Part shown: positions 2,316 through 63,459 of the stretch, piece after piece
How positions within the stretch are numbered: the stretch's first letter is position 1
Layout: each line of letters begins with the position of its first letter
Assembly: GCA_963850825.1 (NCBI GenBank)
Contig: CAWKOQ010000015.1
Coordinates: forward strand, 406 to 64,405
Reading direction: 5' to 3'
From: an uncultured Gammaproteobacteria bacterium
Lineage (GTDB): Bacteria > Pseudomonadota > Gammaproteobacteria > Steroidobacterales > Woeseiaceae
DNA length: 64,000 nt
Translations under genes and position numbers: made by a program
Notes under the pieces: generated by a model
Told to the model about the DNA's origin: nothing
What the model saw: only the letters and a program-made list of their open reading frames with translations
Database searches by the model: none

Positions 2316-2332
2316 TCGTTCATAGTAAGACT
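2316..2332 (+). promoter_or_regulatory. Operator-like 17-mer, weak copy (13/17 to consensus)
   Basis: TCGTTCATAGTAAGACT lies 9 nt upstream of the peroxidase ATG (2306). Its reverse complement shares 13 contiguous nt with the site at 42070-42086. Confidence 0.4.
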
Positions 2333-2665
2333 TGGCGTTACTAACGCCTGCGTATTTTTCGGTGACCTACCGACCAGCCGTCACCGAGTTTCCGGGCAAG
2401 GTGGCAGGATTCGCCAAGCCGCATCGCACCCCGGGAAATATCTCACCTCACCTTCGTTAGCGTCTGCATGCTGCGAATCACCTCATCGGAGTCAACGGTC
2501 ATTCTGGACAATTCCCGGGCACATCATTCGCCTACCGAGAAAAGCCGGCGAATCACCTGCGTCAACACACTCTTTGCTGGCACGGCATTGAGAAAGCACG
2601 GCGTCGTCGGTCGCCACACCGCTTATTGCAAAGTTGTGCGTATACAGACAAAGGCAGATCACAGC

Positions 2666-2693
2666 ACGCAGGCGATAGTCATATCGCCTGCGT
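2666..2693. other. Perfect 12-bp stem / 4-nt loop hairpin in a non-coding gap
   Basis: ACGCAGGCGATA-GTCA-TATCGCCTGCGT, followed on the + strand by TTTG only, so it is not a canonical terminator. Confidence 0.5.
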
Positions 2694-2965
2694 TTGCTGC
2701 TGCGCCCCCGACTCTGGCGCAGCGTTCGGCTGCTGTGAAGCCGGTTTACGAATCCCATCGTCCGTCACCTTTGTCCGAATGCTTACCTGCACATACAGCA
2801 AGCAAAACAAAAAGGGGTCATCGGGCGGTCAAAAAAAGAATCAACGCTCAGATCAATGCAACTGAAAAGCGCGTACGCCTATCTCGCGCAGATTACGAGG
2901 GGTTTAACTCCACTACCACGGACGGCTGAGCTAGGTCTTGAATATGCTTCATGGGCAATATTCAC

Positions 2966-3235
2966 TCAGGCGACCCGCCTCGCCTTTGCCGCTTTATCCA
3001 AATCGTATGAAGCCTGAAGGTTCATCCACAGTTTCGGTGACGTACCCAAGGCGTCAGCCAGATCTAATGCCGCTGCCGCGGTGATACCCCGCTTCCCCTT
3101 GATGAGTTCGTTTAGGCGAGTTTTCGTCCAGCCAATTTTTTCTGCGAGAGCTGCCTGCGTAACACCCTTGGGCTCAAGAAACTCCTCAAGCAATATCTCA
3201 CCGGGATGGGACGGATTTTTGGGTTGTCTGGCCAT
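2966..3235 (-). CDS. higA: HigA-type XRE-family antitoxin / HTH regulator (orphan; no intact higB upstream)
   Basis: MARQPKNPSHPGEILLEEFLEP...GVTQAALAEKIGWTKTRLNELIKGKRGIT matches the HigA/VapI pattern. I prefer the ATG at 3235 over the TTG at 3256. Confidence 0.8.
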   Translation of the reverse strand: MARQPKNPSHPGEILLEEFLEPKGVTQAALAEKIGWTKTRLNELIKGKRGITAAAALDLADALGTSPKLWMNLQASYDLDKAAKARRVA

Positions 3236-3253
3236 TGCGTATCCGCCGGCTCT

Positions 3254-3283
3254 CAATATTGGCTTTGAGCTGCCACAATATTG
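3254..3283. promoter_or_regulatory. Two copies of the 8-bp palindrome CAATATTG, 22 bp centre to centre, just upstream of higA
   Basis: CAATATTG occurs at 3254-3261 and 3276-3283. HigA-type antitoxins typically autoregulate through palindromes in their own promoter. Confidence 0.45.
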
Positions 3284-3479
3284 CCACAGCGCGAACGTGA
3301 TCCAGCGTGATTTAGCGTGATTAAGATGTGAACGAAAAATACCGTATGTGATTGTTATTATTCGTGATATTCTCGTAAGCTATCGATAACAAACGAGTGT
3401 GAAATTGTTTTCGGGAGGAAGGGGCCCACTCAATAGAAACGTTGCGCCAACCGAACACGATTTCTTACTGACATGCTCG

Positions 3480-3502
3480 TTCAAATCTTCTCACCCCGAC
3501 CA
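3480..3502 (+). other. tRNA 3'-end-like fragment (possible integration/att scar)
   Basis: TTCAAAT-CTTCT-CACCCCG-A-CCA has the exact geometry of T-loop, T-stem 3' strand, acceptor 3' strand, discriminator and CCA. The 5' T-stem partner (GCTCG) is not complementary and there is no cloverleaf upstream. Confidence 0.3.
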
Positions 3503-3582
3503 TTTTGTTCGATTAAGTATCTAATGTCGTTTAACGCATCGTACTCGGCATTGCGTGTCCTATCTAACGAGTCGAACAATTA

Positions 3583-3603
3583 CAGAATCGCTAAGCGATT
3601 CTG
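3583..3603. other. Perfect 21-bp palindrome (9-bp arms, 3-nt centre)
   Basis: CAGAATCGC-TAA-GCGATTCTG in the AT-rich non-coding gap. Confidence 0.5.
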
Positions 3604-3958
3604 ACTACATGGCACCCCCGCAAATACCCGCGATATTTTTGTAACCGCTAGTTTTCGAAAACCAAGCCACTGTCTGAGTATGGCAGCTGTCTTTCCTGAG
3701 CACGTCGCAGGCCGTGCGCCTTGGCAATACCGCAAATCTCCGCTCTCATCATATTCGGCACTCCGGTGCCCTGCCTGAACTATTGACACATTTTGAGTTG
3801 TCACCGCTGCCCTGTTCCGTGGCACCATGACAGGTGTAAATCTTCACTTTTGCCGAAATGTTGGCCGTCCCGCATTACGCTACGTCGCGGCGCATAACGA
3901 CAGTGAATGACAAAACGTCAATTCGTCACCACTATGTTCCACCAATCGGGAGTTTGCG

Positions 3959-4294
3959 ATGAAATCAAACTGGTTTGCTGCAGGTGCCATCGCTGGTGCG
4001 GTCGGTGTAGCGCTCGGCGCTTTCGGTGCGCACGCGCTGAAATCCAGGGTGACCGAAGACCTCCTGGCCGTTTTTGAAATTGGCGTTCGCTATCAGATGT
4101 ACCATGCACTGGCTTTGTTCGCCGTCGCCTGGGCCGCGGAACGCTGGCCAGGTAACTGGATCAATGCGTCGGGATGGCTTTTCATGATTGGGATTCTTGT
4201 GTTCTCCGGCAGCCTGTATCTGATGACGCTCAGCGGTGTGCGCTGGTTGGGTGCGATTACGCCAATAGGCGGACTGTTTTTTATTTTCGGCTAG
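3959..4294 (+). CDS. DUF423 (YgdD-like) small membrane protein, ending at a premature TAG that replaces a conserved Trp codon
   Basis: GAFGAH motif, 4 TM pattern, and GGGAG Shine-Dalgarno before the ATG. The reading ...TPIGGLFFIFG*IALAVGALRGS* continues in frame to 4330. Confidence 0.8.
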   Translation: MKSNWFAAGAIAGAVGVALGAFGAHALKSRVTEDLLAVFEIGVRYQMYHALALFAVAWAAERWPGNWINASGWLFMIGILVFSGSLYLMTLSGVRWLGAITPIGGLFFIFG

Positions 4295-4344
4295 ATAGCA
4301 TTGGCCGTGGGTGCTTTGCGTGGCAGCTAGTTATCGTCGCGTGA

Positions 4345-4539
4345 TATTCGCCGGCTTTGCAGGTGCTGGCTACGTCGGCAGCTCCTTTAAACGACGTTCG
4401 GGAACGCGAAGCGATCCCCAGCTACGGTGTTGACCTTCGGTTCACGGTGCTGACGGCCAAACGTATCAATCTGCGGCTGGACTATGCCCGGTCGACAGAT
4501 AGTGACGCAATTCATGTCTCGGTCGGGGAGTCGTACTAG
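4345..4539 (+). pseudogene. C-terminal stub of an Omp85/surface-antigen-type beta-barrel protein
   Basis: ...GVDLRFTVLTAKRINLRLDYARSTDSDAIHVSVGESY* resembles the last strands of such barrels, including a C-terminal aromatic residue. No N-terminal part is present. Confidence 0.3.
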
Positions 4540-4753
4540 AAGCGCATGTGGGACTTTTGCGGGAGTCAGTCCTGCATCGTTCTGCACAATACTGCAATCT
4601 TGTCCGTGAACGCCTCCTGATCAGTCAATAAAACCCTGCCTTCGGAGTGCAACCCAGATAGGCGGTGTTAAAAGGGGTCAGTCGTAGAAGTGGGTCAAGA
4701 ACACTGCAGACCGCACAGGATATGGGCGCTATTCTACGCTTCTTCAGACCAGG

Positions 4754-5767
4754 TCACAGAAGCTCTGCCGCAAGTCTTGCCAGCCTGGGGGCGAGTGCAC
4801 CGTAGTCAAACGCCTTCCTGCTCGATGCATTGCCGTCGATGGCACGCTTCAGAACGCCCTGCAGAATTGCCGCCAGCCGAAAGAAACTGAAGACGATGTA
4901 GAAGTCCCAGTTCGGAATGCCAGCGAGGCCACGTCGGCGACAATACGCGGCAACATACTCTTCTTCGGTCGGAATGCCGAGCGGAGCTCGTTCGACCTCG
5001 CCGAGCCCCGCCACGGCCTCGTTCGATCCGATCCGCAGCTGCATGCACTGGTACGCCAGATCCGCGTAGGGGTGCCCCAGCGTCGATAATTCCCAATCGA
5101 GTAACGCCAGCGCGTCGGGACTATTCGGGTGGAAGATAATGTTGTCCATCCGGTAGTCCCCGTGAATCACGCTAACCTGCCCATCGTCGTCCGGCATGTT
5201 CGCGGGAAGCCACTCGATGAGACGATCCATGGCCTCGATCGTCTCCGTTTCTGACGCACGATATTGTTTGCTCCACCGTCCGACCTGGCGCTCGAAGTAA
5301 CTTCCCGGGCGACCGTAATCAGCAAGACCGACCGCGTCGATATTAACGTCATGGAGCGACGCCAGCACGCGATTCATCTCGTCATACAAGCGGCCACGTT
5401 CGTCCCGGTTAACCTCCGGCAACGCCGGGTTCCAGAAAATTCGGCCATCTTCGAAACTCATGACGTAGAACATGCTGCCGACAATTTCCGGGTCTTCGCA
5501 CAGATGGTAAGCGCGCGCCACCGGCACGTCCGAGTCCGCGAGGGCCCGGATCACCCGATACTCGCGATCCACCGCGTGGGCCGATTTCAACAGCACGCCG
5601 GGTGGCTGCTTGCGCAACACGTATTGCCCGGAATCAGCGCTCAACCGGAATGTGGGGTTCGACTGACCGCCGGCGAACTTCGTGGCGTTCCGAAGCCCTT
5701 TGAACCCTCCGATTCGTGCCTCGAGATAGGCCCCGAGCGATTGCAGATCGAGCGTATCGACGTTCAT
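4754..5767 (-). CDS. APH/choline-kinase-fold phosphotransferase (LvaA-like / ACAD10-11 kinase-domain-like)
   Basis: 337 aa with catalytic loop HGDYRMDNIIF and a following DWE. It sits immediately downstream of an ACAD10/11-type dehydrogenase. Confidence 0.85.
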   Translation of the reverse strand: MNVDTLDLQSLGAYLEARIGGFKGLRNATKFAGGQSNPTFRLSADSGQYVLRKQPPGVLLKSAHAVDREYRVIRALADSDVPVARAYHLCEDPEIVGSMFYVMSFEDGRIFWNPALPEVNRDERGRLYDEMNRVLASLHDVNIDAVGLADYGRPGSYFERQVGRWSKQYRASETETIEAMDRLIEWLPANMPDDDGQVSVIHGDYRMDNIIFHPNSPDALALLDWELSTLGHPYADLAYQCMQLRIGSNEAVAGLGEVERAPLGIPTEEEYVAAYCRRRGLAGIPNWDFYIVFSFFRLAAILQGVLKRAIDGNASSRKAFDYGALAPRLARLAAELL

Positions 5768-5773
5768 GACCGG

Positions 5774-6994
5774 TCAACCTGCATGGCGCTTAATGATCTG
5801 CTTGCCCAGCGCCATCATATGCACCTCGTCAGGCCCGTCAGCCAGGCGACACCATCGCGCGTAGTTGAACGCGTCGGCCATGAACCAGTCGCCAGTCAGG
5901 CCGCCGGCGCCATGCATCTGAATTGCGCGGTCAATGACAGTCTGCGCCATGACCGGCACCGTGATCTTGGTTGCGGCAATCAGATCTCTTGCCTCTTTGC
6001 TGCCCTCCCGATCCATCTTGTCGGCAGTCAATAGTGTCAACAATCTTGCCTGCTCGATTTCAGCAAAGGACTTCGCAATCCCCTCTCGCACGGACTGATG
6101 TTCGCCAATCTTGCGGCCGAATGTGCTGCGCGAGTCAACTCGCTGGCAAGCCAGTTCCATTGAACGCTGTGCGCAGCCGATCAGTCGCATGCAGTGGTGA
6201 ATGCGGCCCGGCCCCAGGCGCCCCTGGGCGATTTCGAAGCCGCGGCCTTCGCCAAGCAATATATTCGCGGCAGGCACCCGCACGTTGTCGAAACTGACCT
6301 CCGCGTGCCCCAATGGTGCGTCGTCGTATCCCAGCGTGCGCAGCGGCCTGACAACCGTCACGCCCGGCGTGTCACGTGGCACCAGGATTTGCGACTGCTG
6401 CACATGCCGGTTTGGGTTGTCCGGATCTGACTTGCCCATGACGATCATGATCCTGCAATTCTCGTGCATCGCGCCTGTAATGAACCACTTTCTGCCATTC
6501 ACGAGGTAATCATCACCGTCCCTGGTAATGGAACACTCGATATTGGTCGCGTCCGACGACGCGACGGCCGGCTCCGTCATTGCGTAGGCGGATCGTATTT
6601 GCCCCTCCAGCAGCGGCGTAAGCCATCGCGCCTGTTGTTCCGGGGTTGCGTACTTCATGAAGACTTCCATGTTTCCCGTATCCGGCGCACTGCAGTTGAA
6701 CGCTTCCGGTGCCCACAGGACGCGACCCATGGTTTCGGCGAGCGGTGCGTATTCGAGGTTGCTCAGGCCTTTGCCGCCGTATTCTTTGTGGTCTTTGTCA
6801 ATGAACAGGTTCCACAAGCCCGCAGCCTTCGCCTGCGCCTTAAGCTCCACCATGACCGGTGGCGTTGCCCAGCGACTGTAGGCGTTTTCGACTTGCTCGG
6901 TGTAGAGATGCTCGACTGGGTAAACGTGCTCCTGCATGAATGCCTGGAGCGCGTCTTTGAGCGCATTTACGTCATCACTGAATCTAAATAGCAT
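5774..6994 (-). CDS. Acyl-CoA dehydrogenase, ACAD10/11-(FadE2)-like
   Basis: 406 aa. Characteristic stretches are GLWNLF, CSAPDTGNMEV, AMTEPAVASSDATNI and GPGRIHHCMR. Confidence 0.9.
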   Translation of the reverse strand: MLFRFSDDVNALKDALQAFMQEHVYPVEHLYTEQVENAYSRWATPPVMVELKAQAKAAGLWNLFIDKDHKEYGGKGLSNLEYAPLAETMGRVLWAPEAFNCSAPDTGNMEVFMKYATPEQQARWLTPLLEGQIRSAYAMTEPAVASSDATNIECSITRDGDDYLVNGRKWFITGAMHENCRIMIVMGKSDPDNPNRHVQQSQILVPRDTPGVTVVRPLRTLGYDDAPLGHAEVSFDNVRVPAANILLGEGRGFEIAQGRLGPGRIHHCMRLIGCAQRSMELACQRVDSRSTFGRKIGEHQSVREGIAKSFAEIEQARLLTLLTADKMDREGSKEARDLIAATKITVPVMAQTVIDRAIQMHGAGGLTGDWFMADAFNYARWCRLADGPDEVHMMALGKQIIKRHAG

Positions 6995-7037
6995 CTGCTG
7001 TCACCTTATGAACTCCCGAATGTTTCTCTCTTGCAAC

Positions 7038-7235
7038 TTACATGTTGGCGATGCAGTGGCCACCGTCGACCGGCAAGGCCACACCATTGATGAACTTGCC
7101 TGCGTCGCTCGCAAGCAACATGAACGGCGCGCTGATTTCTTCCATCTTCCCAGGCCTTCGCGCCGGCGTACTTTGCAGATTCTCCTTACCTGCCTGCGTC
7201 ATCGGATATTTCTCCTCGTGTCCCGGGCTCGACAA
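7038..7235 (-). pseudogene. C-terminal ~55-aa stub of a short-chain dehydrogenase
   Basis: ...PARRPGKMEEISAPFMLLASDAGKFINGVALPVDGGH is the canonical SDR C-terminus. The Rossmann and catalytic parts are absent. Confidence 0.45.
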
Positions 7236-7236
7236 A

Positions 7237-7926
7237 CTAACTGTAGGTCAGTAACCATGATCGCTTTGGGCTGGCGAAATGAGGAACCGTATTGAACGTG
7301 GCCAGCTTGATGTTCTGATGATCACAGTAGAATCGGGTAATGCTCGTATTCAGCAACTGCATGTTCAGATCGAATACTCTTCCGGGCGAAAGACCTAGCA
7401 CAGATCCGACGAACATGCTGATCGCGCCGCCGGAAGTCATCACGATAATTCGTCGCGCGCCTGAAGACATGTCTTGCAGCTCGGCGCGCGCATCCGCCAC
7501 ACGTTGCTGAAACGCATTCCAGGATTCCGGCGCGCCGTCGAGTTCATTGACAGACCAACTGGTAAGCACGCGTCGTAACAGGCGAAAGAACGCCTTGCGG
7601 TCCTGCGGAGAAGTCTTTCTAGCCAACACCAATTCATCCTCGGCATGCAAGTCACAATAGATCTCAAGCATCGCGCGAAAATCGTACTCATTGAGCCCCT
7701 CATGAGTCTTTACAGGGCCGCCGGTCTGCACAACGTTCAATATTTCGTCGAGCGTCTGTCGGTGCCGCTGCATCGCACCGGACAGCGCACCGTCAAACCT
7801 GATGTCGTGCTCGGCAAGATATGCCCCCAGAATACGGGACTGTTCGACACCCAGCTCAGACAGCTCGTCGTAGTTATCAGCAGAAAACGACGCCTGAGCA
7901 TGCCGGATAAGAAAAATTTCGCTCAA
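7237..7926 (-). CDS. Histidine phosphatase (phosphoglycerate-mutase-like) family protein
   Basis: N-terminal LIRHAQASF contains the RHG-type motif. 229 aa with a TTG start. Confidence 0.8.
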   Translation of the reverse strand: MSEIFLIRHAQASFSADNYDELSELGVEQSRILGAYLAEHDIRFDGALSGAMQRHRQTLDEILNVVQTGGPVKTHEGLNEYDFRAMLEIYCDLHAEDELVLARKTSPQDRKAFFRLLRRVLTSWSVNELDGAPESWNAFQQRVADARAELQDMSSGARRIIVMTSGGAISMFVGSVLGLSPGRVFDLNMQLLNTSITRFYCDHQNIKLATFNTVPHFASPKRSWLLTYS

Positions 7927-7969: not shown

Positions 7970-7986
7970 AATCTAATTATGCAAGT
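7970..7986 (-). promoter_or_regulatory. Operator-like 17-mer (16/17)
   Basis: + strand AATCTAATTATGCAAGT, reverse complement ACTTGCATAATTAGATT. It sits in the divergent gap between starts 7926 (-) and 8002 (+). Confidence 0.7.
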
Positions 7987-8001: not shown

Positions 8002-8337
8002 ATGGTGAAAACAGCTAACCACCCAGATTTTCCTGCGCAGCTCGCTGCGACAATCGAATGTCGCTGGGCGAACAAACTCTTCGAATATAAGCAGGACAAG
8101 AACACTTCGCATTGGGACGTGCATATCCCGAGCGTCACCTCCGACACGGCCGGCGGTGGCACCGGGCTACCATCACAGCGCGAATGCCTCGAGCTGATCG
8201 ACCGTTACGTCGCCAGAAAGATCGATAATTTCGTGGAGCTCTGCGCTATCGCCGTTCTTGCAAACGAGATTTCCTTCCGCGGCGCACTATGTGCACAGGA
8301 GTGGATCGATGCTCACGCGAGCCTGAAGTCCCGATAA
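8002..8337 (+). CDS. Hypothetical protein (no family recognised)
   Basis: 111-aa ORF whose TAA overlaps the ATG of the next gene (TAATG). No motif recognised. Confidence 0.4.
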   Translation: MVKTANHPDFPAQLAATIECRWANKLFEYKQDKNTSHWDVHIPSVTSDTAGGGTGLPSQRECLELIDRYVARKIDNFVELCAIAVLANEISFRGALCAQEWIDAHASLKSR

Positions 8338-8865: not shown

Positions 8866-8882
8866 ACTTGCATTATTGGACT
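8866..8882 (+). promoter_or_regulatory. Operator-like 17-mer (16/17)
   Basis: ACTTGCATTATTGGACT, 50 nt upstream of the oxygenase ATG at 8933. Confidence 0.7.
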
Positions 8883-8932: not shown

Positions 8933-10384
8933 ATGAACAGCCCCCTCATCAAACCTGACGCGCCCTTCGGCGAATCCCACGGATCGATGGTGACAGGGGT
9001 CCTTGCGCCTGTTTTCCAGGAGTACGTGCTCGACGACCTGGCGGTTGAGGGCGAGATTCCTGCTGACCTTAACGGCGTTTACCTGCGCAACGGACCCAAC
9101 CCGCGCTTCGAGCCGATGGGACAACATCACGTGTTCGACGGCGACGGTATGCTGCATTCCGCGCATTTCGATCGGGGTAAGGTTGTGTATCGCAACAAGT
9201 GGGTGCGTACCGACGCCTGGCTGGAAGAAGATGCTGCTGGCAAGTGTCTGCACGCGGGTATTTATGCAACGCGCAAGGGCCGTGAAGACAAGCGTCTCAG
9301 GGACAGCGCTAACACCGATGTGATTGGCCATGCCGGCCACGCGGTGGCCAGCTGGTACCTCGCCGGCGTGCCTTATCACCTGGATCCGATCACTCTGGAT
9401 ACCGTCGCCAAGGGAGACTATATCTTCGGTCCGGGCAACGGCTTCTCCGCGCACCCCAAGGTCGACGAAATAACAGGCGAGCTGCTGTTCTTCGATTATT
9501 ACAACGCGCACCCGCACATGAGCTATGGCGTCGTCGATGCCTCGGGCAATGCGACCCACCAGGTGCTCATCGAATTGCCGGGTTCGCGGCTACCGCACGA
9601 CATGGCGATCACCGAGAATTACTCGATCCTTCATGATCTACCGGTACTCAATGACCCTGACGCGTTCCGCGCCGGCCGTCACAAGATCCTGTTCGACTCG
9701 TCGTTGCCGGCGCGATTTGGCGTCATACTGCGCCATGGCGCAGGCGACTCGATTCGCTGGTTCGAGTTCTCGCCGTGCTTTCTCTACCATGTCATCAACG
9801 CCTGGGAAGAAGGCGATGAGGTAGTCATGGTGGCCTGCCGTTACATGCCGGTAAAAGACCTCAGAGGCGGCATCAACGAAATACGTACTGCCAAGAACAT
9901 TGGCAGCGGCATCATGGATGCCCGGCTGTGGCGCTACCGCATGAACCTGAAAACCGGCGAGGCGATCGAGGAATGCCTCGATCCTGTCCGCAACGTCGAA
10001 TTCCCGTCTTACAATGCTGCCCTGACAGGGAGAAAGACTCAGTGGGGATACTTCGTCGACCACGATCCCGCCGTCCTGCGCTGGACAGGTTTGCGTAAAT
10101 TCAATACCGACACCGGCGAGAGCGTCGGTGAGTGGAGTGACGGGCACGAAAGCTGTTGGTACAGCGAACCGTGGTTTGCGCCGGCGGACAACCCACGCAG
10201 CGAAGATCACGGCTACGTCGTTACTTTCGTCTGGAACGACAAAACCCGTGAACAGCAGCTACAGATTTTGGACGCTCAGGACATGAACAAGGGACCGGTC
10301 GCAAGAGTCCGAATACCGCACCAGATACCGTCAGGCTTTCACGCCTGCTGGATGAAGCCGAACCAGATAGCATCCTGGGGCTAG
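8933..10384 (+). CDS. Carotenoid-cleavage / lignostilbene-type dioxygenase (RPE65 family)
   Basis: 483 aa. Family stretches are HHVFDGDGMLH, SAHPKVDEITGELLFFDY, LPHDMAITENYSILHD and FLYHVINAWEE. Confidence 0.9.
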   Translation: MNSPLIKPDAPFGESHGSMVTGVLAPVFQEYVLDDLAVEGEIPADLNGVYLRNGPNPRFEPMGQHHVFDGDGMLHSAHFDRGKVVYRNKWVRTDAWLEEDAAGKCLHAGIYATRKGREDKRLRDSANTDVIGHAGHAVASWYLAGVPYHLDPITLDTVAKGDYIFGPGNGFSAHPKVDEITGELLFFDYYNAHPHMSYGVVDASGNATHQVLIELPGSRLPHDMAITENYSILHDLPVLNDPDAFRAGRHKILFDSSLPARFGVILRHGAGDSIRWFEFSPCFLYHVINAWEEGDEVVMVACRYMPVKDLRGGINEIRTAKNIGSGIMDARLWRYRMNLKTGEAIEECLDPVRNVEFPSYNAALTGRKTQWGYFVDHDPAVLRWTGLRKFNTDTGESVGEWSDGHESCWYSEPWFAPADNPRSEDHGYVVTFVWNDKTREQQLQILDAQDMNKGPVARVRIPHQIPSGFHACWMKPNQIASWG

Positions 10385-14264: not shown

Positions 14265-14289
14265 GCCTCAATTCCTGTTGATTTGACTA

Positions 14290-14306
14290 ACTTTCATAAA
14301 TAGACT
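14290..14306 (+). promoter_or_regulatory. Operator-like 17-mer (16/17)
   Basis: ACTTTCATAAATAGACT in the divergent gap, 25 nt from start 14264 (-) and 51 nt from start 14358 (+). It is preceded by TTGACTA, as at 61647 and 52653. Confidence 0.7.
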
Positions 14307-14357
14307 TGAGAGAGGATACTAGCCTGCCGTTCGATATTCAATCGTAGTGAGGACAAC

Positions 14358-17468: not shown

Positions 17469-18416
17469 CTAGTCACGATCGTAGCTGACGTCATGCGGGT
17501 TCAATATCTGTTCACATTCATTGCAGACCGCTTCGCCGTGAAACAGTTTGTCACAGGGCAGATGCGTCAATTCTAGAGGCTCTTTGCCGGGCTTGATCAG
17601 CCAGCGGTTGGCCCAGTCGTGCAGCGCGATGGTATGCGCATACAGGTCTCTGCCCTTTTCCGACAGATGGTACTCGTGCCTGACGGGCCGTTCGCGATAG
17701 GGCACACGATCCAGAACGCCGGTCTGGACGAGCAGCCGCAGGCGATCCGCCAGAATGTTCGTCGCAATGCCGATTGCCGACGCAATATCGTCGAACCGCT
17801 GAAGTCCGAAGAAACCCGCGGCCAGAACCAGCGACGTCCAACGATCGCCGACGCAATCGAGCACCGAAACGTCTTCCTTGCCAAAATCGCCGCTCTTCTC
17901 TTGCTTCGATTTGGAGCGGCGTTGATACCTCGGCGGCAATTTCTTTACAGCAGCGAAGTTCTTTCCGGGCGAAAACCTGACGTCCTGCGGGAGCACTTTT
18001 TGTTTGCACTCGCCGCACCGGTAGATCGGCACCATCGGCTTTCCGCATGACTTGTGGATCAGTGATTCGGGCAGGTAACGGCGCTGTCCCCAATTGTGCT
18101 CCCAAGCCCACATCAATAGCACGACGGGATACAGGTCGAGGCCTTTGTCGGTCAGTCGATACTCATAGCGCATCGGGCTCGTCTGATAAGGGTTCTTGTA
18201 GAGGATGCCTTTCCCGACCAGCGACTTCAGTCGCGACGCCAGCGTACCGCGCGCCGCACTGGTGGACTTCCTGAGATCTTCGAAACGTCGTACGCCGAGA
18301 TAGATGTCCCTCATGATCAGGAAAGCCCAGCTGTCGCCGATAACCGCCAGGGCCTGCGCCACCTGACTGCTGAGGATAAGATCCGAATCGACTTGTGGTT
18401 TCGGCTTGTCGTTCAC
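17469..18416 (-). CDS. Tandem double HxlR-type winged-helix regulator with two H/Cys3 Zn-ribbon-like inserts
   Basis: Two HxlR repeats (…RFEDLRKSTSAARGTLASRLKSLVGKGIL…RYEYRLTDKG and …RFDDIASAIGIATNILADRLRLLVQTGVL…RHEYHLSEKG). The repeats are followed by HKSCGKPMVPIYRCGECKQ and HLPCDKLFHGEAVCNECEQ respectively. The GTG start overlaps the upstream stop (GTGA). Confidence 0.8.
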   Translation of the reverse strand: MNDKPKPQVDSDLILSSQVAQALAVIGDSWAFLIMRDIYLGVRRFEDLRKSTSAARGTLASRLKSLVGKGILYKNPYQTSPMRYEYRLTDKGLDLYPVVLLMWAWEHNWGQRRYLPESLIHKSCGKPMVPIYRCGECKQKVLPQDVRFSPGKNFAAVKKLPPRYQRRSKSKQEKSGDFGKEDVSVLDCVGDRWTSLVLAAGFFGLQRFDDIASAIGIATNILADRLRLLVQTGVLDRVPYRERPVRHEYHLSEKGRDLYAHTIALHDWANRWLIKPGKEPLELTHLPCDKLFHGEAVCNECEQILNPHDVSYDRD

Positions 18417-18880
18417 GGGTGAGGCCGATTCTTCCCTGGTGGCATAGGGATCATGCCGCTTGTGGATTCCATGTATTCCTTATAACCGGGCCGTTCTCTG
18501 GCGAGTTTCTTGTCGAGCGTCGCCTGCCCCGTGACGTTGACTATCAGGTAAGTATACAGAACCGGTCCGATGATCGTTAAAAGGCCCGGCGGAACGTCGC
18601 AGGCGATGAGAAACAGTCCCCACCAGACGCACAGTTCACCGAAGTAGTTCGGATGCCGCGAGTATCGCCACAATCCGCTGCGCAGTATTGTGCCCTTACT
18701 CGCAGGTTCGGCACGAAAGCGCGTCAGCTGTAAGTCCGCGACTGTTTCAAAAACGAAGCCGATCAACCAGACGGACACGCCGACATAGGTCGGCCATCCG
18801 AGTTCCGAAGGAAACGTAAACATCTGACCGAGTTGTACTGGCACGGAAACGAACCAGATCACCTGCCCGATTGACTCCAC
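18413..18880 (-). CDS. Short DUF1295 / ICMT-steroid-reductase-fold membrane protein (C-terminal half only relative to paralogs)
   Basis: GLWRYSRHPNYFGELCVWWGLF and the tail align with 47731-48540 and 52725-53543, but ~115 N-terminal residues are missing. GTG start with GGAG 9 nt upstream. Confidence 0.7.
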   Translation of the reverse strand: MESIGQVIWFVSVPVQLGQMFTFPSELGWPTYVGVSVWLIGFVFETVADLQLTRFRAEPASKGTILRSGLWRYSRHPNYFGELCVWWGLFLIACDVPPGLLTIIGPVLYTYLIVNVTGQATLDKKLARERPGYKEYMESTSGMIPMPPGKNRPHP

Positions 18881-18914
18881 TTATGCGTCTCCACCCCACT
18901 TATGCGTCTCCACC
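18877..18914. repeat. Perfect 19-bp tandem duplication spanning the SD and GTG start of the short DUF1295 gene
   Basis: CCACTTATGCGTCTCCACC x2 (gene strand: GGTGGAGACGCATAAGTGG x2). Confidence 0.95.
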
Positions 18915-18949
18915 CCGCTGGTTCGTTGCTGGCTAAAGCGGTTTTTATT

Positions 18950-18966
18950 AGTCTAATAATGAAAGT
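18950..18966 (-). promoter_or_regulatory. Operator-like 17-mer (17/17)
   Basis: + strand AGTCTAATAATGAAAGT, reverse complement ACTTTCATTATTAGACT. It lies 69 nt upstream of GTG 18880, or 50 nt if the 19-bp duplication is removed. Confidence 0.75.
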
Positions 18967-19081
18967 CAGTATTCGCAAGTCGGGGACGCCATCAGGCAGG
19001 GTGCGACAGACGTGTGGGCGCAAAAATCCTGTCGTGGATCGCCTTGTGACAGAGTACGACGCCGAAAAGCATCTTCCCTGA

Positions 19082-24593: not shown

Positions 24594-24610
24594 ACTTGTA
24601 TAATTAGACT
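24594..24610 (+). promoter_or_regulatory. Operator-like 17-mer (16/17)
   Basis: ACTTGTATAATTAGACT, 61 nt upstream of GTG 24672. It lies in the 300-bp divergent gap. Confidence 0.7.
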
Positions 24611-32339: not shown

Positions 32340-32356
32340 AGTCTAATAATGAAAGC
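32340..32356 (-). promoter_or_regulatory. Operator-like 17-mer (16/17)
   Basis: + strand AGTCTAATAATGAAAGC. It is 58 nt from start 32281 (-) and 85 nt from start 32442 (+). Confidence 0.7.
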
Positions 32357-38939: not shown

Positions 38940-38956
38940 ACTTGTACTAATGAACT
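38940..38956 (+). promoter_or_regulatory. Operator-like 17-mer (12/17, weakest of the divergent-gap copies)
   Basis: ACTTGTACTAATGAACT, 38 nt from start 38901 (-) and 53 nt from ATG 39010 (+). Confidence 0.5.
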
Positions 38957-42069: not shown

Positions 42070-42086
42070 AGTCTTACTATGCAAGC
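42070..42086 (-). promoter_or_regulatory. Operator-like 17-mer (14/17)
   Basis: + strand AGTCTTACTATGCAAGC. It is 32 nt from start 42037 (-) and 42 nt from start 42129 (+). Confidence 0.6.
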
Positions 42087-43513: not shown

Positions 43514-44986
43514 CTACGACGCCTGCGCAGTTCGGATGTCGTCGCCGTTGGCCCAGGTCGCATGCGTGCCTGCACAAATACGATGCGGCAGTATTATTCG
43601 GCAGATCGCGCCGCCCTCAATGTCTTGCGCATCGACAATGACGCATTCTGAGGCATCCTCTGCCATGTCGGTGACAAACGTAATCAAGTAGCCGTCGTCC
43701 TCATCTTTTGCTCCCACGCGTGGCGCAAAAGCCGCCTCACTGCAGGTACGGTGTTCGCCCATATCGATTGACCACGACTGACCGGTTTGGAGGTCGTGCT
43801 TCGTCAGGCCGGTAAAAAGGAACCAACCCGGTAACGGATTTGCGCTGTACCCGTAGCGATTCTTGACACCGCCAAAGCGCGAGTTGATGACGCCAAATTC
43901 CAGCGTGCGATCATCGAGCCTTTCTTCTATTGTCTCTCCGCTGCGCATGTTAAATCGCCACTTGTGCAGCCGTGGCTGAATGGCCCACTGATCCAGGTAC
44001 GCCATCATGCGTTCGTAGCCCGGCGGAGCATCTTCCCGACTCGGTGGGACTGGTCTGTCCTGGAAGTATCCCAGGAGTACGATCTCGTCTCCTTCTTCCC
44101 ACGCGTTCAGCCAATGCAGAACATAGGTCGGAGCCGCTTCAAACCACTTGATATCTTCGGGCTGGCCGAAACGCGGAATGATGCCGAATCGAGTCGGTAT
44201 ATCTTTATGGAAGCGTACGACGTGATTGCCCTGTTTGAGCTGCTCCGCGTCCCAGAAGACAGGCAGATCGTTCAGAATTGAGTAGTTCGTTGTAAACGCC
44301 ATATCGTGCGGCAGGCGCGGTCCAGGTACCGGTATCGGCACATAATGCTTCAGTTTGTTGTCCGCGCCGACGACGCCGTAGTGCATGAACGGCGCCTTCT
44401 TTGAGTAATTGAAAAACAGCAGTTCACCCGTCGCTTCATCCACCTTCGGATGTGCGGAAATGCCGTCATCGGGAACCCAGCTCTCCGTACCGAATTGATC
44501 CAGGGAGTAAGGATCGAGCCGATATCCTTCCCCGCATTGATAGAATGTTGATAACGCCTGGCCCGCATGCACAATGACATCCGTTGACGACGAGTCTTTC
44601 AATCCTTCCTGTGCACAGATTCCCGGCCGTAGCGAACGCGACGGGTGCTCCATCAGACCCGCCCACAACGAGTGACCCGCCTCCTGCTCAGCCCTGAAGC
44701 CTGCTGTCTCAACAAATCGATTGCAGTATGTCGCCCTTCCGTCGGCGAAACTCATGGAGTGAATCATTCCGTCGCCATCAAACGGGTGGTAACGGCCGAT
44801 GGCTTCATGGATCTGATTTTCGGTGTTGCGCAGATAGACACCATCAAGGTCGCTTGGCACGTCACCAATGACCTCTAAGCCGGTCGCATTGTATTCGTCG
44901 TAATTTGGCGTCCATGCACCGGAAAGATACGGATGCTCCCAGTTTTCTATGGTTGATTGTATTCGGCGGACACGCTCAGTGGGCAT
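43514..44986 (-). CDS. Carotenoid-cleavage / lignostilbene-type dioxygenase (RPE65 family)
   Basis: 490 aa. HPFDGDGMIHS, SAHPKVDEATGELLFFNY, LPHDMAFTTNYSILND and YVLHWLNAWEE. Confidence 0.9.
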   Translation of the reverse strand: MPTERVRRIQSTIENWEHPYLSGAWTPNYDEYNATGLEVIGDVPSDLDGVYLRNTENQIHEAIGRYHPFDGDGMIHSMSFADGRATYCNRFVETAGFRAEQEAGHSLWAGLMEHPSRSLRPGICAQEGLKDSSSTDVIVHAGQALSTFYQCGEGYRLDPYSLDQFGTESWVPDDGISAHPKVDEATGELLFFNYSKKAPFMHYGVVGADNKLKHYVPIPVPGPRLPHDMAFTTNYSILNDLPVFWDAEQLKQGNHVVRFHKDIPTRFGIIPRFGQPEDIKWFEAAPTYVLHWLNAWEEGDEIVLLGYFQDRPVPPSREDAPPGYERMMAYLDQWAIQPRLHKWRFNMRSGETIEERLDDRTLEFGVINSRFGGVKNRYGYSANPLPGWFLFTGLTKHDLQTGQSWSIDMGEHRTCSEAAFAPRVGAKDEDDGYLITFVTDMAEDASECVIVDAQDIEGGAICRIILPHRICAGTHATWANGDDIRTAQAS

Positions 44987-45039: not shown

Positions 45040-45065
45040 TGAAAGTCTGCTAAAGCAGGCTTTCA
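45040..45065. other. Imperfect 11-bp-arm inverted repeat built from the operator half-site TGAAAGTC
   Basis: TGAAAGTCTGC-TAAA-GCAGGCTTTCA, between the TonB-receptor stop (45100) and the oxygenase start (44986). No T-tract follows on either strand. Confidence 0.4.
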
Positions 45066-47579: not shown

Positions 47580-47596
47580 ACTTGCGTAATTAGACT
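47580..47596 (+). promoter_or_regulatory. Operator-like 17-mer (16/17)
   Basis: ACTTGCGTAATTAGACT in the 306-bp divergent gap between TBDR start 47424 (-) and DUF1295 start 47731 (+). Confidence 0.7.
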
Positions 47597-52652: not shown

Positions 52653-52669
52653 ACTTGCTTTACCAGACT
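52653..52669 (+). promoter_or_regulatory. Operator-like 17-mer (14/17)
   Basis: ACTTGCTTTACCAGACT preceded by TTGACTC. It is 12 nt from ACAD start 52640 (-) and 55 nt from ATG 52725 (+). Confidence 0.6.
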
Positions 52670-58058: not shown

Positions 58059-58070
58059 GGTAGTCCCTAC

Positions 58071-58835
58071 TCAACGACCGGTCGACAATGACTCGGCATG
58101 TAGAAGCGCAGCCATCTTTTTTTCCAGGTTATGCGGATCGCGCGCAAGAGATGCACGCATTCCGACCGCCATTGCGTCGGTGTCCATTTCAGAGATCCTG
58201 GCTCTAATTGCCTTCATCCCTGCTTTGGCAACAACTGACGACGGCTCTTTTTGGCCAGCGACGTGTGCCGACATTCGAGTTTCAACGGAGCCCACGATGA
58301 GGGCGCCGACGTGTGTCCCCTGGCCTGCCAGTTCGGCACGAACGTTTGTCGTTAGCGCGCGCGCCGCAAACTTTGACGGGCTATAGCCGCCCATGTTCGG
58401 CACCGCGACGATTCCGGCTGCCGACAAGATATTGATGATCGACCCGCCACCGTTGCGTTTCAGAACTGGAGCGAACGCGCGACACATGGACAAGACGCCG
58501 AAATAGTTAACATCCATCTCCGAGCGGGCTGCCGACATGTCTTCCGCGCCAATAAGCGTTCGATCACCGTAAACACCGGCATTGTTGATCACAATACTGA
58601 CTTCATCGCACTGAGCCGCGGCGGCTTGAACATCTGCCTCATTGGTCACATCAAGTTGTACAGCAACTGCGCGCTCACCCAGTTCACTGCATAAGGATTC
58701 CGCTGCTTCGAGAGATCGAGAACCGATGAAAACCCGGCGGGCACCACAGTGCAACAATTCACGGACAAAGGCCTCGCCAATTCCACGATTGCCACCCGAT
58801 ACGATTGCTACGCTGTCCTCAATATCCATGTCCAA
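58071..58835 (-). CDS. SDR-family oxidoreductase
   Basis: VSGGNRGIGEAF and YSPSK. Confidence 0.9.
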   Translation of the reverse strand: MDMDIEDSVAIVSGGNRGIGEAFVRELLHCGARRVFIGSRSLEAAESLCSELGERAVAVQLDVTNEADVQAAAAQCDEVSIVINNAGVYGDRTLIGAEDMSAARSEMDVNYFGVLSMCRAFAPVLKRNGGGSIINILSAAGIVAVPNMGGYSPSKFAARALTTNVRAELAGQGTHVGALIVGSVETRMSAHVAGQKEPSSVVAKAGMKAIRARISEMDTDAMAVGMRASLARDPHNLEKKMAALLHAESLSTGR

Positions 58836-58847
58836 GTATCCTCTGTT

Positions 58848-58864
58848 AGTCTTGTTGTGAAAGT
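58848..58864 (-). promoter_or_regulatory. Operator-like 17-mer (14/17)
   Basis: + strand AGTCTTGTTGTGAAAGT, 12 nt upstream of SDR start 58835. Confidence 0.5.
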
Positions 58865-58969
58865 AACAGCCGGCCGTGCGCCGCGCAAGATTGTTTGACG
58901 CTAGTGGCGTTCGGAGGGATCAGCTGCTGTCGGGGCCCTCCCTCGTAGCCTGATTAGGCGAACCCTGAC

Positions 58970-59263
58970 TCAGGACAAACCGTCAACGAGCGATAGCTCG
59001 ACGTCTGCATTCGCCTTGCGCAACGCCTTCAATGGTTGGTACTCGGCATCTTCATACCATGCCATCGCGCTTTCCATGTCCGGGAACTCAATGACAACCA
59101 GTGCGGCCGGAAGTGGTTCGTCACCTTCCAAAGCCACCGCTTTCCCCCCTTGCGCAAGATAGCGACCGCCGTGTTTTTCGATTAGCGATTTTGTTGCAGC
59201 GCCATACTCTTTGAGCCAACTCCATTCTGTTGCATTAACGCGACTGACAACGTACGCGGACAT
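58970..59263 (-). CDS. DUF1330 domain protein
   Basis: 97 aa. …HGGRYLAQGG…VVIEFPDMESAMAWYEDAEYQ. Confidence 0.8.
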   Translation of the reverse strand: MSAYVVSRVNATEWSWLKEYGAATKSLIEKHGGRYLAQGGKAVALEGDEPLPAALVVIEFPDMESAMAWYEDAEYQPLKALRKANADVELSLVDGLS

Positions 59264-59287
59264 ACCATTCTCCTTCTAGTCTCACTG

Positions 59288-61599: not shown

Positions 61600-61646
61600 T
61601 CGATCGCCTGATGGGTCGTCTTCCGGCCGAAACGTCAATTTGACTC

Positions 61647-61663
61647 ACTTTCGTAAATAGACC
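61647..61663 (+). promoter_or_regulatory. Operator-like 17-mer (14/17)
   Basis: ACTTTCGTAAATAGACC preceded by TTGACTC, 47 nt upstream of MFS start 61599. Confidence 0.6.
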
Positions 61664-61750
61664 CTCAAGACTACCCTCGTACCCCGCCAGTCGCAATTTG
61701 TCCAAACCATAGAGGCTAAATACATCAACACAATCGACGCAGAGTACCTT

Positions 61751-62545
61751 CTATTTCCAGGAACGAAATAGCGGAAAAAACAGCTGCCGCATAAAGGTCG
61801 CGCGCCGATCGCCGGCAATCCCGAACTCCGATGGATAACGCCGAGTTATCCGTGCAGTACCAAACATCACATCCCATAAGAACAAAAGATTGCCGTAATT
61901 GCCTTTGTAATTGGTAACGCCGTCCGCCGGGTCCATGCCGTGATGGGCATAGTGGGTTGATGGCGTTGAAATAACGCGCTCAACCACCCATGCAACTGGC
62001 GACAAGAATCGATGACGATAGAGGAAAGCATCCCAGGGAACTGCGCAGTGAGCACCGAAAATGACGAGCGCCTTTACTAACGAATAGACGACGAAGACGG
62101 CGCCAAATCCAAGGTAGATCAAAATTGCTGAGATCCAGATCGTCGGCATGAATATGAAATACAAGAGGCTGTTTCGATAGGCAATGCGCACACTAATGTA
62201 GCGAGGCTCGTGATGTGCACGATGAAAATTGAAAAGAAAAGGAACGGAGTGCGACAGACGGTGCCACCAGTATTGCGTCATGTCGTCACCAATCAGGAGT
62301 ATGAGCACCATCGCCCAAACAGGGAGGTGGCCCCACGCCCCTTGCAAGTCGGGCACTAGCCAGCCCATTAATGCGTAGGTTACCAAGACTATTGTTGGAA
62401 CAACCAGAAGCGGAACGCTTAACGTAGTGAAAATCTCGACGACACGGTCGTCGACCGTTGCCGTCATCTTTTTGAAGCGCCCGCGAAAAAATTCCAGTGA
62501 CATCAGGCCAACAAACATCAGGGCGACGATTACTGTGCTGTTCAT
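61751..62545 (-). CDS. Fatty-acid hydroxylase / sterol desaturase family membrane di-iron enzyme
   Basis: His boxes HRLSH, HRAHH and HYAHHG. Confidence 0.85.
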   Translation of the reverse strand: MNSTVIVALMFVGLMSLEFFRGRFKKMTATVDDRVVEIFTTLSVPLLVVPTIVLVTYALMGWLVPDLQGAWGHLPVWAMVLILLIGDDMTQYWWHRLSHSVPFLFNFHRAHHEPRYISVRIAYRNSLLYFIFMPTIWISAILIYLGFGAVFVVYSLVKALVIFGAHCAVPWDAFLYRHRFLSPVAWVVERVISTPSTHYAHHGMDPADGVTNYKGNYGNLLFLWDVMFGTARITRRYPSEFGIAGDRRATFMRQLFFPLFRSWK

Positions 62546-62554
62546 CGAAGCAGG

Positions 62555-63397
62555 CTATTCGTCCGGGCCGCGGGAGGTATGTTCGTGAATAATCTTCCAG
62601 GTCCCCGCATTCGTTTTTTGCCAGACATGAGTGAATGCTCCGCGAACTGTCTCGCTCGGAAATCGGTGCTCGAACAAGCCACGCGAGATAGCGGTACCCG
62701 GCGCGATCTGACGGATGCCCACCTGGTCAGTTTCGAAGTCTCCCATCGCTTCTTCCGTCGTCCACGACGACGTAAAAAAATCGATGAGTTCCTGCTTGCT
62801 GGCGACGATTTGATTCTGAAACAGCAATGACATCTCGACGTCTCCGCTGTAAGCATCCAGGTACAGGGCCATCTCGCCAGCGTTCCAGTCCGTCGACAGT
62901 TTTTTTGTCAACTCAAGAATCTCGTTACCGACAGTGGACGCCGCTTCGGGTGGGCTTAGCGCGGCGGCCAACGATGCCTTGTCATAGTACTCACGCCACT
63001 CGTTGATCTTTCCGTTTGATATTTCCATCACACCAACGACTGGAACCCGCGAGTGTCTGCCCTTGTAGACGAAATCATCGACCCGCTCGAACATGACAAC
63101 GTCGTTAACGATCCCCTTGTTGCGGATCTGTAATTCGATGCGATCGAGATTCTGCACCAACGGCAGCAGCCTGTCCCGAATCGCCTGCTTACCAACAACC
63201 GGCTCGATCATCACACTGTGCAGGACGCCGTCGTCTGCGAACAAATCAAACGCGCGATCCCATTCCATCGTGTTCCAGGCATTGATCATGTCGTCGGCAA
63301 CTGCAAGACGTTCCGCGTCCTCCTGTGCCGTCTCTTTCGAGCAGGCAATCATTCCGCTGCAAATTACCAACAATAATATGATCGCAATTCTCATCAC
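62555..63397 (-). CDS. Lipoprotein with two NTF2-like (SnoaL/DUF4440-type) domains
   Basis: Lipobox …CSGMIACSKE. There are two ~120-aa halves, each with an NTF2-like pattern. Confidence 0.65.
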   Translation of the reverse strand: MMRIAIILLLVICSGMIACSKETAQEDAERLAVADDMINAWNTMEWDRAFDLFADDGVLHSVMIEPVVGKQAIRDRLLPLVQNLDRIELQIRNKGIVNDVVMFERVDDFVYKGRHSRVPVVGVMEISNGKINEWREYYDKASLAAALSPPEAASTVGNEILELTKKLSTDWNAGEMALYLDAYSGDVEMSLLFQNQIVASKQELIDFFTSSWTTEEAMGDFETDQVGIRQIAPGTAISRGLFEHRFPSETVRGAFTHVWQKTNAGTWKIIHEHTSRGPDE

Positions 63398-63442
63398 TCA
63401 CCCCTCGCATCGAAGCAACGTCGGCGGGCAGCCTATCGTTTG

Positions 63443-63459
63443 ACTTGTATTAGAAGACT
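63443..63459 (+). promoter_or_regulatory. Operator-like 17-mer (14/17)
   Basis: ACTTGTATTAGAAGACT, 45 nt upstream of lipoprotein start 63397. Confidence 0.6.

Follow-up and report, generated by a model that had tools for sequence, protein, structure and literature searches.

A recurrent intergenic word in a gammaproteobacterial gene island is most likely the operator of a fused tandem HxlR protein

Regulators of the HxlR/DUF24 family are MarR-like winged-helix proteins, represented by HxlR, YodB and HypR of Bacillus subtilis, QsrR of Staphylococcus aureus, and PA1607 and PA1374 of Pseudomonas aeruginosa. Members of the YodB/QsrR/HypR subgroup sense redox state or electrophiles through an N-terminal cysteine, and YodB and QsrR repress from operators that overlap the promoters of catabolic or detoxifying oxidoreductase genes. 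Here we analyzed a stretch of 64,000 nucleotides from an uncultured gammaproteobacterium of the Woeseiaceae (contig CAWKOQ010000015.1, positions 406 to 64,405; hereafter the window), in which a preliminary description had pointed out a 17-bp operator-like word, ACTTKCATWATTAGACT, in front of essentially every transcription unit. The recurrence of this word in the intergenic DNA of the window was confirmed, and we propose that an uncharacterized fused "double HxlR" encoded in the same 56-kb island most likely binds this element. Whereas known HxlR/DUF24 proteins are homodimers of about 105-170 residues that recognize symmetric sites, this candidate regulator is a 315-residue chain and its putative site is asymmetric. 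The mode of action that we propose resembles that of YodB and QsrR.

The window was searched for ACTTKCATWATTAGACT with up to three mismatches. There were 12 matches, with coordinates and strands exactly as described before, while dinucleotide-preserving shuffles contained 0.16 matches on average and none of 100 shuffles reached 12. A matrix derived from these 12 sites scored them at 21-29 bits with a wide gap to everything else. The two weaker sites of the preliminary description ranked next at 13 bits, and the 15 best scores were all in non-coding DNA, that of site 52653 only after correction of a start codon. To remove circularity, an independent 24-column matrix was trained on 83 non-redundant sites, all of them from other genomes. 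This matrix recovered 13 sites in the window at 16.3-35.9 bits and none between 6 and 16 bits. Since 3 of 20 mononucleotide shuffles reached 13-15.7 bits with it, the weakest sites (61647, 38940, 42070 and 52653, at 16.3-18.0 bits) rest mainly on their position. Of the 14 sites listed originally, 13 were therefore retained, but that at 2316-2332 was rejected because it was not recovered by the independent matrix and lacks the conserved flank. Another candidate at 45044-45060 (GCCTGCTTTAGCAGACT), which precedes the second RPE65 gene by 57 nt, scored 12 bits with the window-trained matrix, failed with the independent matrix and was rejected as well. This RPE65 gene (43514-44986) is the one clear transcription unit of the island without a convincing site.

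Called genes make up 90% of the window, and all 13 accepted sites are intergenic, as had been claimed; the comparison of coding with intergenic DNA left none in coding sequence. Site 52653 appears coding only when the longest open reading frame (ORF) is called and becomes intergenic with the likelier starts at 52640 and 52746. On a gene map based on Pfam, the 13 sites are distributed over about 22 predicted transcription units, the sharing being due mostly to divergent gaps. It is thus fair to say that the word precedes essentially every transcription unit from 7.9 to 63.5 kb. The distances to start codons given before (9-155 nt) rest on the starts of the longest ORFs, and likelier starts place site 52653 at 12-76 nt and site 61647 at 47 nt from gene starts. 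Several sites lie 9-50 nt from a start codon or directly before a ribosome-binding site, and some lie 130-220 nt from one of two flanking start codons. The orientation of the site agrees with the direction of the gene in 8 of 10 reliably annotated single-direction gaps, as tallied manually over Pfam- or database-called genes.

A logo of 95 non-redundant sites was used to define the element. The recurrent word holds, but the element is longer than the 17-mer first described and spans about 21 bp, TnACTTKCAT-W-ATTAGACTnA, with T at position -2 (81/95), A at -4 and A/T at 18-19. The same flanking bases recurred in the 45 sites that had been selected without the exact pattern, and neither the logo nor the alignments of two promoter gaps showed conservation beyond about 24 nt around the word. 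The dyad-symmetric skeleton with unlike halves was evident in the logo as well: the dyad passes through position 9, and the two arms follow a common pattern, W-n-A-S-T-Y-K-M-A-T, and differ at four positions (C/G, T/C, K/T and C/A).

The word is conserved in relatives. Contigs L001-L004, which encode homologues of the tandem HxlR (74, 65 and 63% identity) and have a G+C content of 0.56-0.64, retain the island neighbourhood and carry the word in intergenic gaps. ACTTTCATTATTAGACT precedes DUF1295-hxlR or hxlR alone in these contigs, ACTTTCATAAATAGACT precedes the AMP-ligase gene, and other copies precede RPE65, the hydrolase/WS-DGAT operon and the hydrolase/hemerythrin/GPAT operon. In a nine-locus alignment of the AMP-ligase gap, the word is identical in the eight other loci and is the only fully conserved block, the flanks having diverged. 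An alignment of the DUF1295-hxlR gap (the window plus nine other loci) likewise showed an invariant word at site 18950 between diverged flanks. Individual window sites also have counterparts elsewhere: the word at 32340 recurs identically in the same gap of L001 at 1729, the arrangement 4HBT-site-RPE65 at 8866 recurs in L004 at 2540, orthologues of the MFS gene next to site 42070 carry sites in L036 and L103, and sites linked to TonB-dependent receptors, as at 47580, are present in L018, L080 and L081. The check upstream of orthologous operons that had been suggested thus came out in favor of the word, including at the WS/DGAT-GPAT cluster. With its intergenic position, this conservation at orthologous promoters supports the earlier view of a single, putatively co-regulated regulon that links catabolic genes, transporters and the neutral-lipid cluster. 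Many near-identical intergenic copies could also be produced by a dispersed repeat without regulatory role, of the repetitive extragenic palindromic (REP) or miniature inverted-repeat transposable element (MITE) kind. However, the similarity stops at about 24 nt, the word always stands beside gene starts, it is kept at orthologous positions despite differences in G+C content and even between classes, and an Rfam search of the whole window gave no match. We give a dispersed repeat almost no credence.

The association of the word with a regulator was examined by scanning 185,579 genomes (596 Gb), one for each species, for exact matches to the pattern ACTTKCATWAWTAGACT. At least 119 tiles of 8 kb matched. 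At uniform base composition, a scan of this size should give about 550 hits by chance, and many of the listed tiles, from Bacteroidota, Firmicutes and archaea, are background. Among the matches listed, to which the counts of this paragraph and the next refer, a tandem HxlR homologue was found in 27 of the 119 tiles (tblastn, 32-67% identity, both domains). Several further tiles hold window-like genes or the same alphaproteobacterial target genes, and there the regulator presumably lies just outside the tile. The carriers include Woeseia, Lysobacterales and other gammaproteobacteria, the alphaproteobacteria Afipia, Xanthobacter, Pseudolabrys, Hyphomicrobium, Rhizobium and Agrobacterium, and the betaproteobacteria Ramlibacter, Cupriavidus and Paraburkholderia. 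Rhizobium leucaenae USDA 9039, Cupriavidus pauculus UM1, Paraburkholderia fungorum and Afipia massiliensis DSM 17498 are among those that can be cultured. The site is no more than 1.1 kb upstream of the regulator gene in 22 of the 27 tiles, and it has the orientation of that gene in 22 of 22, which are not 22 independent events as many of these loci are orthologous. The regulator operons have three layouts: DUF1295-hxlR, coxG-hxlR and hxlR alone. The word was assigned to the tandem HxlR mainly because this is the one gene that travels with it. The preliminary description had named this gene (17469-18416) as the first candidate, and its predicted role is now strongly supported by the co-occurrence in three proteobacterial classes and by the site in front of its own operon.

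The co-orientation of word and gene is strong, in the single-direction gaps as well as in the 22 hxlR operons, and the word resembles -35 and -10 hexamers. Both observations would also fit a promoter of an alternative sigma factor of the extracytoplasmic function (ECF) type, or the site of another regulator, with the tandem HxlR nearby incidentally. Against this, neither the window nor the retrieved neighbourhoods yielded a gene for a sigma or anti-sigma factor. The conserved block is contiguous and pseudo-palindromic rather than two boxes with a free spacer, it is directed against the gene at 61647 and at L004 18628, and only the tandem HxlR accompanies it across the alpha-, beta- and gammaproteobacteria. 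The only other DNA-binding gene in the window encodes a helix-turn-helix (HTH) protein of the Xre type (2966-3256, minus strand); it lies outside the site-bearing region, beside remnants of insertion sequences (IS), and was rejected as the regulator. We consider a sigma factor or another regulator improbable, and the tandem HxlR remains the preferred candidate.

The genes linked to the site in alpha- and betaproteobacteria are otherwise unlike those of the window. They encode a CoxM/S/L-type molybdenum hydroxylase closest to glyceraldehyde dehydrogenase, CoxG, an AttM-like lactonase, Fe- and Zn-alcohol dehydrogenases, a periplasmic binding protein, and HpaB with AA_synth. The word precedes such genes in seven loci (L038, L008, L034, L108, L069, L093 and L115), the AttM-like lactonase being embedded in the molybdenum hydroxylase genes. 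These loci would represent a different regulon that uses the same protein-DNA code. The word is thus not specific to fatty-acid genes, since in alpha- and betaproteobacteria it would control oxidoreductases of the alcohol, aldehyde and lactone type.

Two side observations came from these loci. A second, diverged tandem HxlR paralogue lies near the first in some relatives (L001 1-149 and L086 6760-7677); the L086 copy is 33% identical by tblastn, and the L001 copy is known from a 324-residue PF01638 gene call only. Such a paralogue might have its own variant of the site. In L066 (Candidatus Aphodosoma, Bacteroidales, G+C 0.29), three copies of the word are spaced exactly 54 bp apart at 875-999. 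The 8-kb tile contains no tandem HxlR, and the triplet is probably an unrelated tandem repeat matched by chance.

The tandem HxlR protein was compared with known members of the family. It matches PF01638 with 145.1 bits (gathering cut-off 20.8) in two stretches, so that both halves match above threshold. Aligned with each other, the halves share 34% identity over 131 residues (E = 2e-27), indicating that the gene arose by internal duplication. Searches of the PDB by sequence and fold returned only single-domain HxlR-family proteins, each matching one half: PA1607, PA1374, HypR, YodB, HxlR, QsrR and YtcD. Each half superposes on PA1607 (2f2e), PA1374 (4gcv), HypR (4a5n), YodB (5hs7), HxlR (7bzd/7bzg) and QsrR (4hqe), and Foldseek gave TM-scores of 0.5-0.8 per half, normalized to the target, for 2f2e, 4gcv, 4a5n, 5hs7 and 7bze. 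No structure in the PDB fold search matched the whole chain, the best TM-score normalized to the query being 0.38. NCBIfam has no model for the tandem form and gave sub-threshold matches only, to RrpA and RrpB. As the protein is one chain with two diverged domains rather than a homodimer of single-domain subunits, it represents a variant architecture within the HxlR/DUF24 family and not a canonical member. For this protein, 803 homologues were found at E < 1e-10 in a collection clustered at 90% identity, and 268 clusters at E < 1e-30 in one clustered at 50%, where most of the best 150 are 300-340 residues long and match end to end.

Two sequence features distinguish the tandem proteins further. 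In an alignment of 29 sequences, each half ends in an invariant H-x2-C-x9-C-x2-C motif (H121, C124, C134 and C137 in the first half; H285, C288, C298 and C301 in the second). The alpha- and betaproteobacterial homologues have these residues without exception, and the motif is absent from the aligned region of PA1374. An AlphaFold2 model of the chain is confident as a single body (pLDDT 88.7, pTM 0.87) with small beta modules at these His-Cys3 motifs, each of which is probably a zinc ribbon; they could be structural zinc sites or sensors. At the position of the N-terminal sensing cysteine, the window protein has serine in both halves and many alpha- and betaproteobacterial homologues have cysteine. 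The recognition helices of the two halves also differ, with R-x-T-L-x-x-R-L in the N-terminal half and I-A-x-N-I-L-x-D/E-R-L in the C-terminal half, and each is conserved from gamma- to alpha- and betaproteobacteria despite an overall identity of about 35%, which parallels the conservation of the asymmetric site.

The position of the word relative to promoters was then considered. In the promoter of the regulator itself, CTTGCAG is found at -13..-7 in 10 of 10 gammaproteobacterial loci, which yields TTGCAG-N17-TAGACT. Because this block is conserved 17 nt before TAGACT, the word appears to provide the spacer and the -10 box of the regulator's own promoter. At the AMP-ligase promoter, TTGATT-N17-TAGACT and TTTCAT-N17-GATACT are both conserved. 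In alphaproteobacterial regulator promoters, the left arm CTTKCA is followed after N17 by CTATAT, CTATTA, CTATGT or CTATCG. The housekeeping promoter consensus of alphaproteobacteria is CTTGAC-N17-CTATAT, which CTTKCA-N17-CTATnn fits. A further promoter-like sequence, GTGACT-N18-TATGAT, overlaps site 7970. We infer from these arrangements that, whichever register applies, the core promoter and the word overlap, with the word as spacer and -10 box or as -35 box and spacer. Being embedded in the core promoter would account for its usual orientation along the gene.

Because of this overlap and the proximity of sites to start codons and ribosome-binding sites, we infer that the protein represses by occluding promoters and regulates its own operon, as is usual for MarR-like proteins. 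Several observations weigh against this reading, besides the shared ancestry of many of the 22 hxlR loci. Scoring of sigma-70 promoters around the 95 sites left the position of the -10 box ambiguous, as the word gives hexamer-like matches on both strands, and a scan for consensus promoters found 9 where 7.1 were expected from shuffles, which is no better than chance. Only some of the window sites have a recognizable -35 box at -12..-7. The sites at 61647 and L004 18628 lie in single-direction gaps and point away from their sole neighbouring gene, so the promoter-embedded picture is not universal. B. subtilis HxlR, from which the family takes its name, is an activator. The evidence for the operator-regulator pair is, moreover, all comparative.

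The sites and the regulator might thus be as proposed but with the tandem HxlR activating its targets, or acting in both ways, as B. subtilis HxlR does on hxlAB. In addition to that family precedent, the sites 130-220 nt from one of their flanking start codons and the several window promoters without a good -35 box at -12..-7, a property typical of activator-dependent promoters, would agree with activation. However, conserved hexamers at the optimal 17-nt spacing enclose or overlap the site, and many sites are 9-50 nt from starts or just before the ribosome-binding site, which leaves no room for a downstream promoter. Activation seems unlikely to us, though less so than a role for a sigma factor. 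We regard it as likely that the word is the operator of the tandem HxlR encoded at 17469-18416, and we hold the more specific proposal of repression with less confidence.

We propose that the tandem HxlR acts as a covalent pseudo-dimer of two diverged winged helices, each with a His-Cys3 module. Its two unlike recognition helices would read two unlike half-sites, and this would account for the asymmetry of the site; which domain would read which arm is part of the same proposal. The right arm, TAGACT, could serve as a -10 box and the left arm, CTTKCA, could serve as a -35 box in core promoters of the sigma-70 type, such that the bound protein would exclude RNA polymerase from an operator embedded in the core promoter. 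In this manner the protein may repress the operon that encodes it and no fewer than 13 promoter regions, from which about 22 transcription units with some 45 genes would be read. Among the products are alkene-cleaving oxygenases, acyl-CoA ligases, dehydrogenases and thiolases, DUF1295 and SnoaL enzymes, transporters and the wax-ester/triacylglycerol cluster. An effector would release the protein. Speculatively, the effector could be an aldehyde- or lactone-type or lipid-derived signal, as hinted by the alcohol, aldehyde and lactone oxidation targets in alpha- and betaproteobacteria and by the oxygenase, aldehyde dehydrogenase and acyl-CoA genes of the window. MarA, SoxS and Rob of the AraC/XylS type bind as monomers with two non-identical HTH heads to an asymmetric site of about 20 bp whose orientation relative to the promoter matters. 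The likeness, with one chain, two unlike DNA-reading heads and an asymmetric site, serves as a working analogy only: the fold is unrelated, there is no homology to the tandem HxlR, and MarA, SoxS and Rob are activators.

Table 1 Putative operator sites, promoter elements and regulator operon in the window. Scores are from the independent matrix. ACAD, acyl-CoA dehydrogenase; ALDH, aldehyde dehydrogenase; SDR, short-chain dehydrogenase; NMO, nitronate monooxygenase; ADH, alcohol dehydrogenase; (-) and (+), strands of flanking operons.
Feature	Position	Strand	Remarks
Operator site ACTTGCATAATTAGATT	7970..7986	-	33.7 bits; 43 nt upstream of His-phosphatase/ACAD/APH-kinase operon (7926 down to 4754)
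Operator site ACTTGCATTATTGGACT	8866..8882	+	24.4 bits; 50 nt upstream of RPE65-type oxygenase 8933-10384
Operator site ACTTTCATAAATAGACT	14290..14306	+	Independent matrix match; divergent gap, DSBA/thiolase (-) / AMP-ligase/FAD-oxidoreductase (+)
-35-like hexamer TTGATT	14278..14283	+	Conserved; 17 nt upstream of TAGACT 14301-14306; putative promoter
Alternative promoter reading TTTCAT-N17-GATACT	14292-14297 + 14315-14320	+	Putative
Candidate regulator gene, 315-aa fused tandem HxlR	17469..18416	-	Two winged helices, each with an H-x2-C...C-x2-C module
5'-truncated DUF1295 gene, first in regulator operon	18413..18880	-	
Operator site ACTTTCATTATTAGACT, perfect consensus, putative autoregulatory	18950..18966	-	35.9 bits; 69 nt upstream of DUF1295-hxlR operon
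-35-like hexamer TTGCGA	18973..18978	-	CTTGCAG block in relatives; 17 nt upstream of TAGACT 18955-18950; putative promoter
Operator site ACTTGTATAATTAGACT	24594..24610	+	33.0 bits; counterpart in L001 at 9127
Operator site GCTTTCATTATTAGACT	32340..32356	-	31.8 bits; between hydrolase/WS-DGAT operon (-) and HpaB (+)
Operator site ACTTGTACTAATGAACT, weaker	38940..38956	+	16.7 bits; conserved AGT flank; SDR/AMP-ligase/thiolase/NMO operon (-) / SnoaL (+)
Operator site GCTTGCATAGTAAGACT	42070..42086	-	17.6 bits; 91-bp gap, amidohydrolase/SGL (-) / MFS transporter (+)
Operator site ACTTGCGTAATTAGACT	47580..47596	+	26.1 bits; TonB-dependent receptor (-) / DUF1295/molybdopterin oxidoreductase (+)
Operator site ACTTGCTTTACCAGACT	52653..52669	+	18.0 bits; ACAD/SnoaL x2 (-) / DUF1295/SnoaL_4/AMP-ligase/4HBT (+)
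Operator site ACTTTCACAACAAGACT	58848..58864	-	25.7 bits; just upstream of SDR/AMP-ligase operon; GAGGA ribosome-binding site 4 nt later
Operator site ACTTTCGTAAATAGACC	61647..61663	+	16.3 bits; upstream of MFS/Zn-ADH operon (-), oriented against gene
Operator site ACTTGTATTAGAAGACT	63443..63459	+	24.8 bits; 45 nt upstream of SnoaL x2/fatty-acid-hydroxylase operon (-)

The gene map of the window was drawn from Pfam and NCBIfam scans of its proteins. A dense, paralogue-rich island begins near 4.7 kb and continues up to the window's right end, and the tandem HxlR is the only transcription factor that these scans found inside it. The island encodes two RPE65-type alkene-cleaving oxygenases, three DUF1295 proteins and about six SnoaL/LEH-like proteins. 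Its acyl-CoA genes comprise five AMP-dependent ligases, two acyl-CoA dehydrogenases and three thiolases, two of them of the SCP-x type, and its dehydrogenases comprise several short-chain enzymes, one aldehyde dehydrogenase and one Zn-alcohol dehydrogenase. Other redox proteins are two CrtI/amine-oxidase-like flavoproteins, HpaB, a nitronate-monooxygenase-like protein and a molybdopterin oxidoreductase. There are one TonB-dependent receptor and two MFS transporters, and a neutral-lipid block consists of hydrolase, hemerythrin, HAD-acyltransferase, GPAT and WS/DGAT. The gap at site 24594 separates the hydrolase/hemerythrin/HAD-acyltransferase/GPAT operon (plus strand) from a divergent operon for ALDH, thiolase, AMP-ligase and SDR (minus strand).

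FadR, PsrA, DesT, KstR and FadP likewise govern many genes for acyl-CoA ligases, dehydrogenases and thiolases by way of an operator that recurs in promoters. In contrast to those systems, the Pfam and NCBIfam scans of the window revealed no gene of the TetR or GntR type. The operators of these regulators, for example those of KstR (TnnAACnnGTTnnA) and PsrA (GAAAC-N-GTTTC), are not known to resemble the word of the window.

Several features of the island and its borders were observed in passing. To the left lie IS fragments and genes for cytochrome c peroxidase, the Xre-type HTH protein and DUF423 (3959-4294), with no convincing site at any of them. Integrase/transposase fragments (rve, rve_3) occupy 31-924 at the left end, a gene-poor stretch follows at 2930-4750, and the G+C content dips to 0.46 at 3200-3700. 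The IS fragments and the gene-poor stretch may mark the left border of the island. The operon at 4754-7926 encodes a histidine phosphatase, an acyl-CoA dehydrogenase and an APH-type kinase, and its pairing of kinase and ACAD resembles that of the phosphorylation-dependent 4-hydroxyacyl-CoA route of bacterial Lva and mammalian ACAD10/11. An ORF of 111 codons at 8002-8337, probably the remnant of a gene, matches only the last 80 or so positions of the HMG-CoA reductase profile and overlaps the ORF of the 4HBT thioesterase at the latter's start. A small DUF1330 gene (58970-59263), missing from the preliminary description, lies between site 58848 and the Zn-ADH gene. In the regulator operon, the DUF1295 product has 155 residues and covers only positions 97-235 of the profile, compared with 262-272 residues in relatives. 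A tandem duplication of about 20 nt (GGGGTGGAGACGCATAAGTG twice, at 18861-18930) lies at the junction and carries the ribosome-binding site and GTG start of this gene. It looks as if a 5' deletion or rearrangement had taken place in which the promoter and operator were retained.

Literature searches turned up neither a tandem or duplicated HxlR, nor the word, nor an HxlR-linked regulon with such genes, although a description may exist in subscription papers; a term search of the HxlR structure paper yielded no description of an operator. The present results define, at the level of sequence, a putative operator and its candidate regulator in a protein family that lacks a name, a curated model and a located paper. 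Its members occur both in cultured Rhizobium, Agrobacterium, Afipia, Xanthobacter, Cupriavidus and Paraburkholderia and in marine gammaproteobacteria that are uncultured. As a natural, covalently fused winged-helix dimer with an asymmetric site, the tandem HxlR may inform how half-sites diverge after domain duplication, and with its word it could possibly be used as an orthogonal regulator-operator pair for engineering. The chances seem to us evenly balanced that these proteins form a widespread class of single-chain repressors of the "double HxlR" type, comprising at least 268 clusters at 50% identity, with two His-Cys3 metal or redox modules and an asymmetric operator that doubles as the -35 or -10 box. 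One such protein would switch on the entire 56-kb island in sediment gammaproteobacteria, Woeseia being the closest named relative here, and the island would couple the breakdown of alkene- and isoprenoid-type lipids to the storage of wax esters and triacylglycerols, the system being rewired in alpha- and betaproteobacteria to alcohol, aldehyde and lactone oxidation. By tying about 45 genes, among them those for RPE65-type oxygenases, DUF1295 and SnoaL proteins and acyl-CoA enzymes, to neutral-lipid storage, the word delimits a functional unit, which suggests a substrate-to-storage pathway that could be induced and studied as a whole.

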